From an uncultured Candidatus Saccharibacteria bacterium (GTDB taxonomy: Bacteria > Patescibacteriota > Saccharimonadia > CAILAD01 > JADZBC01), in NCBI GenBank assembly GCA_964413715.1, contig CAYPSN010000001.1, positions 10,613-74,612 on the forward strand: a stretch of 64,000 nt of DNA, written 5' to 3'. The notes beneath the pieces are model-generated. The model worked only from the letters and a program-made list of their open reading frames with translations, ran no database searches and was not told the origin of the DNA. A program made the translations under genes and the position numbers. This document shows, piece by piece, positions 47,722 to 57,330 of this stretch; the first letter of the stretch is position 1, and every line of letters starts with the position of its first letter.

Positions 47722-47901
47722 ATGGACGAGAAGAAAAAGAAAGATTTAGAAGAACAAAAGTGTGGTGGCTTGTTTGTGCCTGCCGGGGTCTTGCTTGGCA
47801 CCGGTCTGGGCTTTGCATATGGCAATATACCCGCTGGCGCACTGATTGGTCTTGGCGTAGGTTTTACTGTATTCGCGCTTATTACAGTTTTTAAGAAGTA
47901 G
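47722..47901 (+). CDS. small hydrophobic protein (59 aa), not in the ORF track
   Basis: MDEKKKKDLEEQKCGG followed by two Gly-rich TM-like segments; ends TAG at 47899-47901. Confidence 0.35.
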   Translation: MDEKKKKDLEEQKCGGLFVPAGVLLGTGLGFAYGNIPAGALIGLGVGFTVFALITVFKK

Positions 47902-47911
47902 CAGGTCGATA

Positions 47912-47966
47912 TAAACGAAAAGGACCCCCGAACGAATCGGGGGTCCTTTCGTTCAGGGGTCGGGCG
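47912..47966. repeat. island repeat copy R1 (nested palindrome; terminator-like for the minus-strand gene at 47972)
   Basis: AACGAAAAGGACCCCCGAACGAATCGGGGGTCCTTTCGTTCAGGGGTCGGG: 13-bp stem AAAGGACCCCCGA/TCGGGGGTCCTTT with loop ACGAA. Confidence 0.8.
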
Positions 47967-47971
47967 GGCAG

Positions 47972-48415
47972 CTAGGGCCTGCGCTCCGGCTTCAACTCCA
48001 GATCGAGCTTGGCAAGCGAAGCTTCGACCAGCTCGAGACATGCAGCGCCGAAGCCCGTAATGGCGCGCAGCTCACTGGCGTCACGCTGTACGAGTTCGCC
48101 AACGGTGTTGATTCCTGCTCGTCGGAGGCATTCGGCCGTTCGAGTCTTCACTCCCTGCGTGAAGGGGACCCCCTCGAGCTTGATGTTCAGAAGGTCCTCG
48201 ATGTTCATCTTGAGAGTCTCGTGGCCTCGGCCAATGAACTCGGTGGTGATGTGCCTCTCTTCCACTCGGATTACGGCTCTCACTACGAGACCGTGGTATC
48301 GACCTTCCAGTGCCTCGATGTCATTCAAGGCGCTCAGGATTGCTAGGTGTTCTCCCGTAAGGCTGATTTCGACATCTGCCTTTTGGGGTACGACTTCGGA
48401 TCCGAAATCGGGCAT
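47972..48415 (-). CDS. island gene A: stand-alone RpoA C-terminal-fragment-like protein (end of alphaNTD + linker + alphaCTD double HhH)
   Basis: 147 aa. TAECLRRAGINTVGELVQRDASELRAITGFG..LELVEASLAKLDLELK aligns with actinobacterial RpoA alphaCTD (VRSANCLKREGVHTVGELV..DLLDIRNFGQKS..LGLSLK). N-terminal 60 aa aligns with the last alphaNTD strand and linker. About 57% GC. Confidence 0.6.
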   Translation of the reverse strand: MPDFGSEVVPQKADVEISLTGEHLAILSALNDIEALEGRYHGLVVRAVIRVEERHITTEFIGRGHETLKMNIEDLLNIKLEGVPFTQGVKTRTAECLRRAGINTVGELVQRDASELRAITGFGAACLELVEASLAKLDLELKPERRP

Positions 48416-48476
48416 TGCAGTGGCCTTTTGTTCTCTGCGGGGCTACCGCAGCACATCCACGGTGGATGATTAGCAA

Positions 48477-48505
48477 ATAATATCACAAATATAGTAAAAA
48501 GTCAA
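48477..48505 (-). promoter_or_regulatory. promoter of island gene A: TTGACT-17-TATTAT (minus strand)
   Basis: The AT-rich 90-bp spacer contains near-consensus hexamers. The 5'UTR carries hairpin CUGCGGUAGCCCCGCAG and an AAAAGG SD. Confidence 0.5.
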
Positions 48506-48512
48506 TATCATT

Positions 48513-48563
48513 ATAACGAAAGGACCCCTGAACGAATCGGGGGCCTTTTCGTTCAGGGGTCGG
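48513..48563. repeat. island repeat copy R2
   Basis: ATAACGAAAGGACCCCTGAACGAATCGGGGGCCTTTTCGTTCAGGGGTCGG; 12-bp perfect arms CCCCTGAACGAA/TTCGTTCAGGGG plus an alternative overlapping stem. Confidence 0.8.
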
Positions 48564-48580
48564 TTTGATGGTGGGCCAGG

Positions 48581-48958
48581 TCAGCGGCTGAGGATGACCG
48601 TGCAGGATGGGTTGTCCTGGATCAGCCAGTCACCGTTGTACTGGACCAGCTTGCCATCACAGACCTTGCTGGTCTTGGAGCTGTCTGTCAAGGTGTAGCG
48701 CACGGACCTATTCCAGACCGAGAGCTCGACCACGTGGATCTTGTCGTAGTGCGACTCGACCTCCGTCGTGACACGGGCATCTTCCTTGGCCCGGCTCTCA
48801 TCCACGAGGTACATGCCATTGGCGAAGACCACGAAGATGACGGCCAGTACCCCGAAGGCGATGGCTGGCTTCCAGTGTTTCTTGGAGATCAGCAGGACAC
48901 CGGTGGCGACTGCGAGCACTCCCGCCATCATCAGTGCGACGATTACTTCTGCGCTCAT
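48581..48958 (-). CDS. island gene B: hypothetical two-TM membrane protein with about 70-aa extracytoplasmic Cys-containing C-domain
   Basis: 125 aa. GC3 about 80%. Perfect SD AAGGAGG 6 nt before the ATG. Confidence 0.55.
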   Translation of the reverse strand: MSAEVIVALMMAGVLAVATGVLLISKKHWKPAIAFGVLAVIFVVFANGMYLVDESRAKEDARVTTEVESHYDKIHVVELSVWNRSVRYTLTDSSKTSKVCDGKLVQYNGDWLIQDNPSCTVILSR

Positions 48959-49000
48959 GGCGCCTCCTTGTTCGGGGCCTCAGATTTAAGGCTGAAGGGT

Positions 49001-49038
49001 ATATTAGCATATTATGCAATAAAAGTAAATACATACAA
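49001..49038 (-). promoter_or_regulatory. promoter of island gene B (TTGTAT-18-TAATAT or TTTACT-17-TAATAT, minus strand)
   Basis: AT-rich spacer with two overlapping candidate hexamer pairs. Confidence 0.4.
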
Positions 49039-49051
49039 GGTTTTTTGTGTA

Positions 49052-49103
49052 ATAACGAAAAGACCCCCGAACGAATCGGGGGCCTCTTCGTTCGGGGGTC
49101 GGG
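49052..49103. repeat. island repeat copy R3
   Basis: AATAACGAAAAGACCCCCGAACGAATCGGGGGCCTCTTCGTTCGGGGGTCGGG. Confidence 0.8.
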
Positions 49104-49113
49104 TTGTGCCGGC

Positions 49114-49533
49114 TCAGCCGGAGGTGATGACCAGCTTGATGTCGGCGAAGGCGTAGGTCAGCGCCTGCTCGAACTCCAGGTCCTCGCCGATGCCGTGGCC
49201 GAAGTGCTCTCGAACGTCGACGGCTCGGATCACCTCGGTCTCCATGAGCACGCCCAGGGCGTGGTCGATGACCTGTGCCTTGAGCTTCTCCTGCGGATCG
49301 CTCCGCTTGGTGTCGATCAGGACCACACGGTTGTGCAGCTGGCTGAGCTTCTCGTGCTTCTCGTGGAGTCGGCCCTCGACGTTGATCACTGCATGTTCTG
49401 CAAGGATCTGGAAGCGCCCAGAGGTCACGATGGTCTGGATCTGGCCATCGTCACCCGTGAAGCGCAGGCTTCCGTCGGGCATGGTGGCCAAGAGGCCTAC
49501 CTGCAGGGCAGGCGTGGTTGCAGTTGCAGCCAT
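49114..49533 (-). CDS. island gene C: hypothetical soluble protein
   Basis: 139 aa. GC3 about 85%. SD GAAGGAG. No confident family; a weak epsilon-subunit-like GRFQILAEHAVI motif was considered and not trusted. Confidence 0.5.
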   Translation of the reverse strand: MAATATTPALQVGLLATMPDGSLRFTGDDGQIQTIVTSGRFQILAEHAVINVEGRLHEKHEKLSQLHNRVVLIDTKRSDPQEKLKAQVIDHALGVLMETEVIRAVDVREHFGHGIGEDLEFEQALTYAFADIKLVITSG

Positions 49534-49568
49534 GTCGGTTCTCCTTCGTGAGTGGATGACAGTACATA

Positions 49569-49597
49569 ATTATGCATGATTAATTCAAAAATGTCAA
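49569..49597 (-). promoter_or_regulatory. promoter of island gene C: TTGACA-17-CATAAT (minus strand)
   Basis: Consensus -35 and 17-nt spacer in an AT-rich spacer. Confidence 0.5.
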
Positions 49598-49620
49598 TAT
49601 TAAAGAGACATTTTCATTCT

Positions 49621-49672
49621 ATAACGAAAAGGCCCCCGAACGAATCGGGGGCCTTTCCGTTCAGGGGTCGTG
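49621..49672. repeat. island repeat copy R4
   Basis: ATAACGAAAAGGCCCCCGAACGAATCGGGGGCCTTTCCGTTCAGGGGTCG. Confidence 0.8.
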
Positions 49673-49687
49673 TTGTGAGGCCTGCCT

Positions 49688-50119
49688 CTAGCCGATCGGC
49701 TTGAGGCTCAGCCCGTGCTCGGCCAGCTTCTCCTTGACCAGGTCGAGGCTCTTCTGGCCGAAGTGCGTGATCGCGAGGAGGTCGTCCTCGGTCTTCTCGA
49801 CGAGCTGGCTGACGGTCTCGATCTGCGCACGACGTAGGTTGTTGCGGGTGCGGTCGACCTGGCTGTTGCCGGGGTCGGGGTGGCCGATGAGCTCCTCGAT
49901 GGTCATCTCCGGGGCCGGCCTCTGCCCGATGAACTCGATGCGCGACTTGTCGCCGATGAACTCGATGCTCGAGACCTGGGTCTCGATGCGCGCGCTGAGC
50001 TTGACGTCGGGGTAGTCCTCCGGGATGCGCAGGATGGCGGCCTTGGCCGCCAGGATCTGGTCCGTGGGGCCCGTCAAGACGAGCTCGGCGGAGATGCTGT
50101 TGGGTGCGGGGTCGGTCAT
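49688..50119 (-). CDS. island gene D: stand-alone actinobacterial-type RpoA C-terminal fragment (last alphaNTD strand + linker + alphaCTD)
   Basis: 143 aa. QVDRTRNNLRRAQIETVSQLVEKTEDDLLAITHFGQKSLDLVKEKLAEHGLSLK closely resembles actinobacterial RpoA CTD (..[47 protein letters not shown]), including the actinobacterial FGQKS signature. N-terminal TGPTDQILAAKAAIL resembles the last alphaNTD element. GC3 about 95%. Confidence 0.7.
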   Translation of the reverse strand: MTDPAPNSISAELVLTGPTDQILAAKAAILRIPEDYPDVKLSARIETQVSSIEFIGDKSRIEFIGQRPAPEMTIEELIGHPDPGNSQVDRTRNNLRRAQIETVSQLVEKTEDDLLAITHFGQKSLDLVKEKLAEHGLSLKPIG

Positions 50120-50182
50120 ATTTCCTCTTTCGTTGGGCGACCGGTTGCGTCCTTGTGGACGATTTTACAAGACGATTTTGCA

Positions 50183-50211
50183 ATATTAGCATAATTTTTA
50201 TTAATTGTCAA
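50183..50211 (-). promoter_or_regulatory. promoter of island gene D: TTGACA-17-TAATAT (minus strand), back-to-back with the hisS promoter
   Basis: Consensus -35 and a near-consensus -10 with 17-nt spacer. Confidence 0.5.
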
Positions 50212-56046: not shown

Positions 56047-56622
56047 TTAGAGTAAGCCAAGCTTACGAGCACAGGCAGGCCATGGGCTCCAGCCTCGAGC
56101 GGCTTGAGTTTCACGCGCCTTGGCGTCCTGGACAGCTGGCGGGGCTAAGTGCGGATACGCATAGCCACCATAGTTGTTCCAGGTGCCAATGTTGTACTGG
56201 TAGGCACCGTAGTAACCGTTACCCGAGTTACGAGTATAGTCACCACCGGCCTCACAGAGGCGCAGTTGCTCCCAGACGTCACCTGACGCAACGCCAATCT
56301 TTTGATTGGACTGATTGTCGAGTACTGCCGAAGCCAGCTTAATCTGCACGGCCTGAGCAGCTGCTTGAGCCTCTGCCTGAGCCTTGGCGGCTTGAGCGGC
56401 TTTTAGCGGAGCCATAACTTCTTGGTCGAAGTCGGGCTTTTGTGCTACAAGCTCAACAGCCTGGAGTGAGTTTGTATTGATATTTAGATTGTAGGTGATT
56501 TTTGGCCTACTTACAGCTTGGGCCGAAGCTTCGGCTGTAGCGGTGGCAGGAATATGTAGGGGGTTTGCCACCTGGGTTGCGAATAGTACGGCGACTATAA
56601 GCGATTGGATGTGTCTATGCAT
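56047..56622 (-). CDS. secreted Rpf-like (resuscitation-promoting-factor type) transglycosylase-like domain protein
   Basis: 191 aa. Signal peptide, Ala/Gln-rich linker, C-terminal WEQLRLCEAGGDYTRNSGNGYYGAYQYNIGTW...GWSPWPAC (transglycosylase-like domain with a conserved Cys pair). Confidence 0.75.
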   Translation of the reverse strand: MHRHIQSLIVAVLFATQVANPLHIPATATAEASAQAVSRPKITYNLNINTNSLQAVELVAQKPDFDQEVMAPLKAAQAAKAQAEAQAAAQAVQIKLASAVLDNQSNQKIGVASGDVWEQLRLCEAGGDYTRNSGNGYYGAYQYNIGTWNNYGGYAYPHLAPPAVQDAKARETQAARGWSPWPACARKLGLL

Positions 56623-56860
56623 GTATCTAACAAGTAGATACCCTCCTAAACTACGTCCTTTTCCTAGTTAATGCTCCGCCCGAAATTCGGGCAAATGCAC
56701 ACTTGAGCTAGAAACAAAAACGACCTTATAAGATGATTCTTACTCGGTCGAAATATCTAAAATCAAGTGAACGTGTGAATAATAGCATAACGTAAGCAGT
56801 TTGTCAAGCATTTTGGCGCACTTTTTGTTGCCAAAAGAATAAAGAAATTTTTGTAAAAAA

Positions 56861-57256
56861 GAGCCATCTACAGTATTTGAGATGGCAACGTGTCCTGGGG
56901 AGCGGGTGGAAGCTCCCCAGGACACGCGAGCGCAGCTACTGGTGTTTCCCCCTTGCAACACCAAGCGGCTCTGGGGCGATCTATATGTATAGAGGAGGGG
57001 CTGAGGGCCCGAAGCAGGAGGCCGTAGCCTGGTGCCCATCAGCGGGTGTAAAGCGCTATGGATGGGTGGGGCCTCTGCTCCGGGCCGACAGCTGCCGATT
57101 CTACGCTGAGTCGGCTGTCGCTGGTTTCCCCTGATACTCCTCGTGCCTATTGGCTTGGTCTCCACCAGCTTCAGAGCCTAGTCGGTTATCCGTCCCGCAG
57201 GTCGGGCCGCTAGCTACTTGGGGAAGCTTGTGAAACAAGGCCGGTTGGCTTGAGTT
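56861..57256 (-). ncRNA. unassigned about 390-nt GC-rich structured RNA gene (minus strand)
   Basis: Consensus promoter on the minus strand (TTGACA-16-TAGAAT; plus coordinates 57263-57290). At the 3' end, a 15-bp perfect hairpin (56889-56926) and a second hairpin GCCATCT/AGATGGC (56863-56886) are followed by a U6 run. The segment is about 60% GC versus 48% background, with no plausible ORF on either strand. No convincing RNase P, tmRNA, SRP or ydaO motifs were found by eye. Confidence 0.45.
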
Positions 57257-57330
57257 GGTTTTATTCTACTCCGCCTATGCTTGTTGTCAACGCTTTTTTC
57301 GAGACCATTTGATTGCTATACTAATCAGGT

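Follow-up and report, generated by a model that had tools for sequence, protein, structure and literature searches.

What is encoded in the gap between the rpf-like gene and the divergent ABC exporter gene in this 64,000-nt stretch of a Saccharibacteria genome (hereafter the window, meaning the whole of the DNA analysed)? The sequence-only reading had placed there a structured RNA gene, non-coding and transcribed independently from the minus strand. Its size suggested RNase P RNA or some other large RNA of the housekeeping kind, with a novel RNA as the fallback. The answer depends on where the unit begins and ends, on what its relatives conserve, and on whether any known RNA class accounts for it.

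The transcription unit and its boundaries

The gap measures 708 bp. Between 56900 and 57200 its GC content is 0.63-0.645, against 0.488 for the window as a whole, in agreement with the GC-rich block that had been described in a gap of about 700 bp between divergent genes; for 56855-57257 as a whole it is about 63%. None of the open reading frames in the gap (141 aa from a GTG, 85 aa and 45 aa) matches a Pfam family or is conserved, and the earlier judgement that none is credible stands. The transcript predicted on the minus strand (Table 1) folds with a minimum free energy of -176.9 kcal/mol (z = -5.4 against dinucleotide shuffles).

Table 1. Coordinates of the RNA gene, its parts and its neighbours in the window
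Feature	Position	Strand	Detail
rpf-like gene	56047-56622	minus	PF06737
ABC exporter gene	57331-59115	plus	divergent from the rpf-like gene
RNA gene, predicted transcript	56855-57257	minus	~403 nt; start site inferred from the -10 box
RNA gene promoter	57263..57300	minus	A-tract 57294-57299; -35 TTGACA 57285-57290; 16-nt spacer; -10 TAGAAT 57263-57268 (TTGACA-16-TAGAAT, 57290..57263)
5' domain	57139..57257	minus	predicted start ~57255-57257 (CAACUCA...)
5' domain closing helix, CACAAGCUUC/GAAGCUGGUG	57223-57232/57163-57172	minus	encloses variable hairpins
Linker, CAGGGGAAACCAGC	57120..57133	minus	from alignments
Pre-core hairpin, GCCGACUC-AGCGUA-GAAUCGGC	57094..57115	minus	from alignments
Core, CUG-U-CGGCCCGGAGCAG...CUGCUUCGGGCC-CU-CAGCCC	56998..57091	minus	94-nt irregular hairpin; apical stem AGCG/CGCU, loop CUUUACACC
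3' domain hairpin, CCCC...GGUGUU-GCAAGGGGGAA-ACACC	56939..56976	minus	helices 9-10; G-rich loop
Perfect 15-bp hairpin, CGTGTCCTGGGGAGC/GCTCCCCAGGACACG	56889-56926	minus	helix 11; conserved C-rich loop UUCCACCC
Intrinsic terminator, GCCAUCU-N10-AGAUGGC (DNA GCCATCT/AGATGGC), then UC-U6	56855-56886	minus	helix 12
Separate promoter of the rpf-like gene	56807..56779	minus	TTGACA-17-TATTAT with TG; outside the RNA, marks the unit boundary

The consensus promoter first seen by eye is present and agrees with the consensus at 11 of 12 positions. By number alone such promoter-like matches are not above chance (4 found, 2.0±1.6 expected). The weight of this promoter comes instead from conservation, as promoter, GC-rich body and terminator are co-located in 16 distinct homologous loci. 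The element AAAAAGYGTTGACA...TAGAAT is kept at the equivalent position in all of them, with TAAAAT as the variant in L002. At the other end, the perfect 15-bp hairpin and the following 7-bp hairpin with its T6 run are both found as originally described. The terminator hairpin was unlisted by the terminator scan, since its 10-nt loop exceeds the 8-nt limit of the tool, and is plain in the sequence; a T-run closes every homologue of the ORF-less form (type I, below).

Between this terminator and the rpf-like gene lies another promoter. Both it and the leader of about 150 nt that follows it are conserved whether or not the RNA is present, as in the RNA-less examples L026, L028 and L031. Because a conserved promoter serving the rpf-like gene lies in between, the RNA block constitutes a separate transcription unit. 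The independent, structured, non-coding minus-strand unit that had been proposed is thus supported by its own promoter, terminator, fold and conserved homologues.

This arrangement bears directly on the possibility that the block is a cis-acting leader or attenuator, in which conditional read-through of the hairpins would add to rpf expression. The RNA is always co-directional with the rpf-like gene and immediately upstream of it, and the 15-bp hairpin itself lacks a U-tract. There is also precedent, since the rpfA genes of Actinobacteria have long riboswitch leaders. However, the unit is closed by two consecutive hairpins, the second with U6, and the near-consensus promoter downstream, with its TG and conserved leader, exists in relatives that lack the RNA altogether. 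No model of ydaO (RF00379) or of any other riboswitch matches, and the translated ORF inside type II transcripts is unlike an aptamer leader. We therefore concur with the sequence-only reading in holding a leader to be the less likely case; on this evidence it is improbable.

Homologues, covariation and module exchange

Sixteen distinct homologues were found in related Saccharibacteria MAGs, all with the same synteny (ABC exporter <- RNA -> rpf-like gene); their source samples include SRR7082978, SRR31558899, ERZ27283041 and JGI 3300043411. The ABC exporter places the organism within Saccharibacteria. In six species-level MAGs (L001-L006), whose exporters are 77-79% identical, a GC-rich block with the same promoter occupies the equivalent position and strand. 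L019-L024 were added through a search with the rpf-like protein and its contigs, and L039-L044 and L046 through searches with the small peptide described below. The block was not found at the syntenic site in L007-L010 (exporter 51-63% identical) or in L026, L028 and L031 (rpf 57-63% identical).

A covariance model of the core (R1) returned exactly one copy per syntenic locus in the 324 kb searched, and one in the 64-kb window. Across the loci it scores 83-99 bits in the sense orientation and 24-35 in the antisense (99.3 and 27.6 bits for the window core), and this gap defines the strand of the RNA. A scan of metagenomes with the core pattern gave a single chance-like match (L018, 30 bits with R1); this negative is weak, as L019 and L023, JGI sequences already known to be positive, were missing from the output of the same scan. 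Viral scans yielded five chance matches to a loose pattern and none to two specific patterns, and blastn against plasmids and phages gave no match. The family was found only in one small clade of Saccharibacteria.

The core is the most conserved part of the RNA locus. The window, L001, L005 and L020 are 0.91-0.96 identical in it, and the window matches L022 throughout (1.00); overall it is 91-100% identical in five or six of the seven type I lineages, with L003 as the exception (0.75 to the window). Four-fold degenerate positions in the neighbouring ABC gene have reached saturation between these genomes, with an identity of 0.29-0.40 (about 0.30). The 5' and 3' domains have diverged to 0.35-0.72 identity and retain their helices.

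Covariation analysis across relatives had been suggested as a check on the original reading, and its outcome favours a selected RNA fold. In the alignment of seven sequences, 89 consensus pairs are formed, with 93% of cells paired. Changes on both sides occur in 27 pairs. Column shuffling gave 13.2±2.4 (none of 500 shuffles reached the observed value), and sliding the partners against each other gave 5-9. The comparative set as a whole consists of 16 related sequences, which are not independent of one another. For the core, 12 sequences of types I and II yield 22 consensus pairs, and compensatory changes are seen in 9. In the basal stem, for example, G-C alternates with A-U, and at the apex AGCGC/GCGCU alternates with AGCAC/GUGCU.

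The same pattern recurs along the molecule. In the 5' domain, helices 1-3 (RNAalifold) contain 9 pairs changed on both sides. The pre-core hairpin retains its RRCGUA loop as its stem covaries (GUCGACUC/GAGUCGAC in L001; GCCAGCUC/GAGUUGGC in L005). The 3' domain hairpin varies in its stems and keeps its AAGGGG loop in the window, L022, L001, L005 and L020. In the 15-bp hairpin, 9 of 15 pairs have changed on both sides and the UCCACCC loop is kept; even between the window and its close relative L022 this stem has been rewritten around an unchanged loop. The seven pairs of terminator helix 12 are 100% paired, three of them with double changes.

Identity along the locus is distributed in blocks. 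Between the window and L022, identity is 0.9-1.0 for the flanks and the core and only 0.60-0.67 in 57159-57210 (the inner hairpins of the 5' domain, 0.67) and 56859-56978, where stems have been rewritten by paired changes. L019 combines L003-like outer domains (0.87 and 0.73) with a window-like core (0.96). L042 and L044, with exporters about 85% identical, have unrelated 5' domains and are 100% identical over more than 580 nt from the start of the ORF; L042 and L039 share an identical 5' domain and differ in the ORF (0.35). These block-wise patterns indicate that the RNA locus evolves by module exchange. Judged from the sequences, the 5' domain, ORF, core and 3' helices appear to be shuffled between lineages, with the qualification that metagenome assemblies can be chimeric. 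In a locus this mosaic, the core could owe part of its apparent ultraconservation to recent lateral exchange and not to long purifying selection.

Mosaicism also raises the question of whether the block is simply a recombining GC-rich cassette with no RNA function of its own, for instance selfish or palindromic DNA, or sequence produced incidentally by GC-biased gene conversion at a hot spot of recombination. The exchanges just described (L042/L044, L019, window/L022) would fit such a cassette, as would the form of the core, a long imperfect inverted repeat. Yet each locus has a single copy and the rest of the 324 kb has none, the model score is strongly asymmetric between strands, the promoter and terminator persist across homologues, and stems covary around unchanged loops. 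Moreover, the adjacent stretches exchanged along with the RNA (the rpf leader) are not GC-rich. A cassette devoid of RNA function is very unlikely to explain these observations.

Two forms of the RNA and the CxxC micropeptide

The homologues take two forms. Type I (7 loci, 377-420 nt: the window, L022, L001, L005, L020/L021, L003 and L019) has no ORF; type II (9 distinct loci, 400-600 nt: L002, L004, L006, L023, L024, L039, L042, L044 and L046) has one. Both possess the promoter, the 5' end CAACUC, the motif GAAACC(GC), the pre-core hairpin and the core hairpin. The GAAACC(GC) of the window linker is also part of the invariant GCAGGAACCCCUGCGAAACCGC element of the ORF-bearing relatives, and it is between this linker and the hairpin before the core that sister lineages carry the inserted ORF of 37-44 aa. 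In type I its place is taken by about 35 nt with one small hairpin. The covarying helix that closes the 5' domain is found in type I and in form-X type II (L023, L039, L042), and the 5' domain of form Y differs. The core of both types conforms to the consensus CUG-N-CGRCCCGGAG ... CUYCGGGYY-N-CAGSCC. The exception is L024, a type II locus that keeps ORF, 5' domain and terminator and has no core hairpin, which means that the core is not indispensable everywhere.

Every type II locus contains an ATG-initiated ORF of 37-44 codons ending in [AT]-C-x-x-C(-G)-stop. The peptides follow the pattern ..SDF.A..TG[PS]SPTAAG....[AT]-C-x-x-C(-G)-stop, the SDF.A and TG[PS]SPTAAG elements being present in most. 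Among the five ORFs measured, GC3 is 0.95-1.00 and GC1 0.42-0.55 (neighbouring genes have a GC3 of about 0.52), a three-base periodicity that RNA structure alone cannot explain and that marks these ORFs as real coding sequence. Reading frame and C-terminus are conserved, and gene callers predict 9 of the 10 known peptides.

Only about 10 such peptides of 37-44 aa turned up when 5.8 billion clusters were searched with a word index and 1.84 billion representatives were searched exhaustively with HMMER. Every peptide whose context was read sits at the RNA locus in Saccharibacteria, and these searches accordingly gave no support to an actinobacterial origin of the ORF. The type II peptides match no Pfam or NCBIfam family. 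Among type I sequences, the window copy included, no ORF is conserved; the only recurrent ATG, inside the core, opens frames of 16-18 codons in two genomes and, in others, frames that read on through the terminators. Among the marks of a dual-function RNA, a conserved small ORF within one transcript is found in the family (10 distinct peptides) and is missing from the window copy. Another, an RNA function independent of the ORF, is indicated by the covariation of the core and 5' domain, which are common to both types.

If type II transcripts can serve as mRNAs, the window copy might be the decaying remnant of one, left non-functional when its lineage lost the micropeptide ORF. The fast evolution of the peripheral parts of type I would be in line with such decay. 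Against this, each of the seven ORF-less lineages has kept its promoter, terminator and helices intact despite saturation of the neighbouring synonymous sites, the core remains near-identical in most of them (L003 apart), and stems change by compensatory pairs and not at random. We see only a slim chance that the window holds a remnant.

Known RNA classes and the proposed mode of action

With Rfam 15 there was no match at the gathering threshold in the whole 64-kb window. The check proposed for the original reading, cmscan of the region, was run on 56500-57450 with permissive filters at E<=10 and gave only noise, with no family at E<=0.1; the matches were to models of microRNAs or lncRNAs and to an rliD fragment resembling a terminator. 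The models for RNase P (RF00010, RF00011), tmRNA (RF00023), SRP (RF00169), 6S (RF00013) and ydaO (RF00379) found nothing at E<=10 in that region. In seven homologous loci at E<=1 the sole match was a microRNA hairpin (E~0.1). ARAGORN predicted no tRNA and no tmRNA gene in the window.

Each candidate class was rejected on further grounds. For RNase P, the covariance models (RF00010/RF00011) are negative in the 64 kb, in 56500-57450 and in the seven homologous loci; a universal non-coding RNA would also not be expected to be absent at the syntenic site in L007-L010, L026, L028 and L031, or to contain a translated ORF in sister copies. For tmRNA (RF00023), ARAGORN and cmscan are negative, and an intrinsic terminator forms the 3' end of the RNA. 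The ORF of type II, which has an ATG and ends in CxxC(G), is no degradation tag. For SRP RNA (RF00169/RF01854), cmscan is negative and the core apex is AGCG-CUUUACACC-CGCU, not GNRA.

The 6S (RF00013) and Ms1 RNAs deserve separate mention, as they are difficult to find by sequence (PMC9130861). Like them, the RNA described here is potentially abundant, stable and structured, with a terminator, and Ms1 is GC-rich and about 300 nt long. However, the minimum-free-energy and consensus folds are multi-domain, with neither a 5'-3' closing helix nor the rod with a central bubble, and cmscan is negative. Nor are any 9-mers held in common with the sequences in the supplement of the Ms1 paper, and the Ms1 synteny, with a HAD-IB hydrolase and an oxidoreductase (PMC9130861), is different.

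A highly divergent housekeeping or RNA-polymerase-binding RNA, of the RNase P, tmRNA, SRP or 6S/Ms1 kind, would suit the size and GC-richness of the transcript, and the RNAs of CPR bacteria can be atypical. Set against this, besides the negative searches and the fold, neighbouring clades lack the RNA at this site, sister copies accommodate a coding insert of 120 nt, and L024 has lost the core. A coding insert of this kind would be intolerable for a universal housekeeping RNA. The suggestion of RNase P or another large housekeeping RNA was therefore not borne out, and any such identity is now highly improbable. The fallback of a novel RNA is the reading that the evidence favours. In full-text literature searches we found neither such an RNA nor any regulatory RNA described from Saccharibacteria or other CPR bacteria.

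We propose, with a probability of roughly 0.6, that 56855-57257 on the minus strand is an independent, GC-rich, multi-helix RNA gene of about 400 nt, the ORF-less and RNA-acting form of an undescribed, modular and clade-restricted family. That it is a real, selected and novel non-coding RNA gene is very probable. Its promoter would be strong and constitutive and would yield a stable, terminator-ended RNA. The near-invariant 94-nt hairpin and the constant loops UCCACCC, CCCCACCC and AAGGGG would then present surfaces that bind a partner in trans, and loops that stay constant while stems are rewritten are indeed likely contact surfaces. The partner could be a protein, or G-rich or C-rich RNA segments such as translation-initiation regions. 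The mode would be that of dual-function riboregulators such as RNAIII or SgrS, with an ORF that is dispensable in some lineages. This specific binding mechanism is put forward tentatively. No seed, partner or target was found for the RNA, and pairing with the adjacent rpf Shine-Dalgarno region was rejected, as the CCCUCCU match occurs in the window and is not conserved in L001 or L022.

A far more speculative idea is that the locus determines host interaction in these epibionts: the RNA, strongly expressed and unusually rich in GC, or the CxxC peptide, whose codons are ~100% G/C in third position, would act on or in the high-GC actinobacterial host and not in housekeeping regulation, as a transferred effector RNA or peptide or as a signal of host range resembling a pherotype. 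Action on or in the host would account for the exchange of cassettes between lineages, but we give this idea very little credence.

Saccharibacteria have tiny genomes and live as obligate epibionts of Actinobacteria. The RNA gene offers a concrete entry point into their post-transcriptional regulation and possibly into host interaction. Since Saccharibacteria are now genetically manipulable (PMC10633639), the gene can be deleted. The family is also a natural experiment on the gain or loss of a micropeptide ORF by an RNA. Its relevance to CPR biology and to the evolution of dual-function RNAs is moderate to good.

Several known systems share some of these properties. The raiA, ROOL, GOLLD and OLE RNAs are likewise GC-rich, highly structured, stand-alone RNAs that were found by comparative intergenic analysis. 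Their Rfam models are negative here, and those classes are cross-phylum and strictly non-coding, whereas the Saccharibacteria RNA is modular, restricted to a narrow clade and sometimes peptide-coding. With actinobacterial 6C RNA and RsaE/RoxS of Firmicutes it shares conserved unpaired C-rich motifs (the UCCACCC loop and CCCCACCC) that could pair with G-rich sites in mRNAs. Those RNAs, however, are about 90-150 nt long with two defined C-rich loops, and the RF01066 and RsaE models are negative here; the Saccharibacteria motif is CCACC (complement GGUGG) and not the anti-SD-like CCCC or CCUCC.

Closer parallels are found among RNAs that also encode peptides. In SgrS/SgrT, SR1/SR1P and Pel RNA the functions of RNA and peptide are separable, and in some species the ORF is lost or degenerate and the RNA retained. 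These are Hfq-dependent or base-pairing sRNAs with defined seeds, and the Saccharibacteria RNA is two to three times longer.

Staphylococcal RNAIII, the agr effector that carries hld for delta-haemolysin, is alike in being several hundred nucleotides long, with many hairpins and its own promoter and terminator. It also has a small ORF inside a regulatory RNA that is missing in some lineages, allelic diversity of the locus, and C-rich hairpin loops that are conserved while stems vary. It differs in that there is no sequence or Rfam relationship and there are no agr-like genes near the Saccharibacteria locus. The Saccharibacteria peptide is CxxC-ended and rich in Ala, Thr and Pro, not an amphipathic toxin, and base-pairing in the manner of RNAIII is here an analogy. 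By this resemblance, the nearest functional analogues would be the dual-function riboregulators RNAIII/hld and SgrS/SgrT, the likeness being one of architecture and not of membership.

Leader of the rpf-like gene

A conserved, structured leader of about 150 nt lies downstream of the rpf-like gene's own promoter. A covarying outer helix (CACUUG...CAAGUG) surrounds a terminator-like hairpin (CGACC..GGUCG plus UUUUUGUUUCU), and 3' of these stands the near-invariant sequence GAGCAUUAACYAGGAAAAGGACGUAGUUUWGGAGGG. An alternative pairing is possible between GUCGUUUU and AAAAGGAC, the latter adjoining the Shine-Dalgarno sequence (SD), and it is invariant in 13 sequences, outgroups among them. The leader may act as an attenuator or in riboswitch-like fashion. 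It gave no match in Rfam, and ydaO was rejected as its identity. Across the whole window (1-64000) there was no tRNA, tmRNA, Rfam-recognisable RNA or riboswitch.

A small hairpin, GUAUCUAC-N3-5-GUAGAUAC, lies inside the gap between the SD (GGAGGG) and the AUG, so that the spacing of the rpf-like gene is normal only when the hairpin forms. In L026, a more distant locus that lacks the RNA gene, this hairpin is compensated (GUAAG-UUUUU-CUUAC).

Features of the rpf-like and exporter regions and micropeptide ORFs of related loci
Feature	Position	Strand	Remark
SD-AUG hairpin	window 56623-56650	minus	rpf-like gene
rpf-like leader	window 56620-56772	minus	same region in L001-L006, L019-L031, L039, L042, L046
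TATACT box	window 57301-57333	plus	reverse complement of invariant AGTATA in ..GTATAGCA..
Micropeptide ORF	L002:3651-3767	minus	
Micropeptide ORF	L004:456-578	minus	
Micropeptide ORF	L006:3631-3765	minus	
Micropeptide ORF	L023:503-619	plus	
Micropeptide ORF	L024:2472-2585	plus	
Micropeptide ORF	L039:4001-4114		
Micropeptide ORF	L042:4001-4123		
Micropeptide ORF	L046:3001-3123		

The ABC exporter and the region beyond it

At all loci a conserved TATACT box precedes the ATG of the ABC exporter by some 10-15 nt. Its position suggests that the exporter leader is very short or absent, and that the exporter and the RNA gene share a compact divergent promoter region. Downstream of the exporter, about 4.8 kb (59200-64000) holds no listed ORF longer than 121 aa on either strand, in a listing that leaves out ORFs running off the window end. 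Since such ORFs go unlisted and relatives carry proteins of 1500-1800 aa nearby, this stretch is most likely part of a very long gene extending past the window end.

Other high-GC islands

A second GC-rich island of the window (47900-50200; GC up to 0.68) carries minus-strand ORFs that have a raised GC3 (0.67-0.84) and fall into no clear family; an RNA-polymerase-alpha-CTD-like HhH is present in one of them, and another is weakly holin-like. The island probably came from a high-GC organism. An apparent further high-GC insertion close to rpf occurs in a more distantly related member of the Saccharibacteria (L031/L032/L033, 2087-2691), where two small convergent ORFs of 102 and 99 aa (about 0.70 GC) lie upstream of the rpf-like gene in otherwise low-GC surroundings.

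Module boundaries and micropeptides at the RNA locus

Module boundaries are sharp both among L042, L044 and L039 (3800-4570), three loci with the ORF-bearing RNA, and between the window (56859-56978 and 57159-57210) and L022, another ORF-less locus. Stretches of 100% identity adjoin others of 35-55%, and the flanking genes are about 85-95% identical. This mosaic indicates recombination at the RNA locus, or possibly chimeric assemblies.

The micropeptides (37-44 aa; consensus ..SDF.A..TG[PS]SPTAAG..[AT]CxxC(G)*) belong to no Pfam or NCBIfam family that could be found, and only about ten members occur among some 15 billion proteins. All those whose context was read lie at the RNA locus. The five ORFs for which it was determined have an extreme GC3 of 0.95-1.00, against about 0.5 in ordinary genes of the same genomes.
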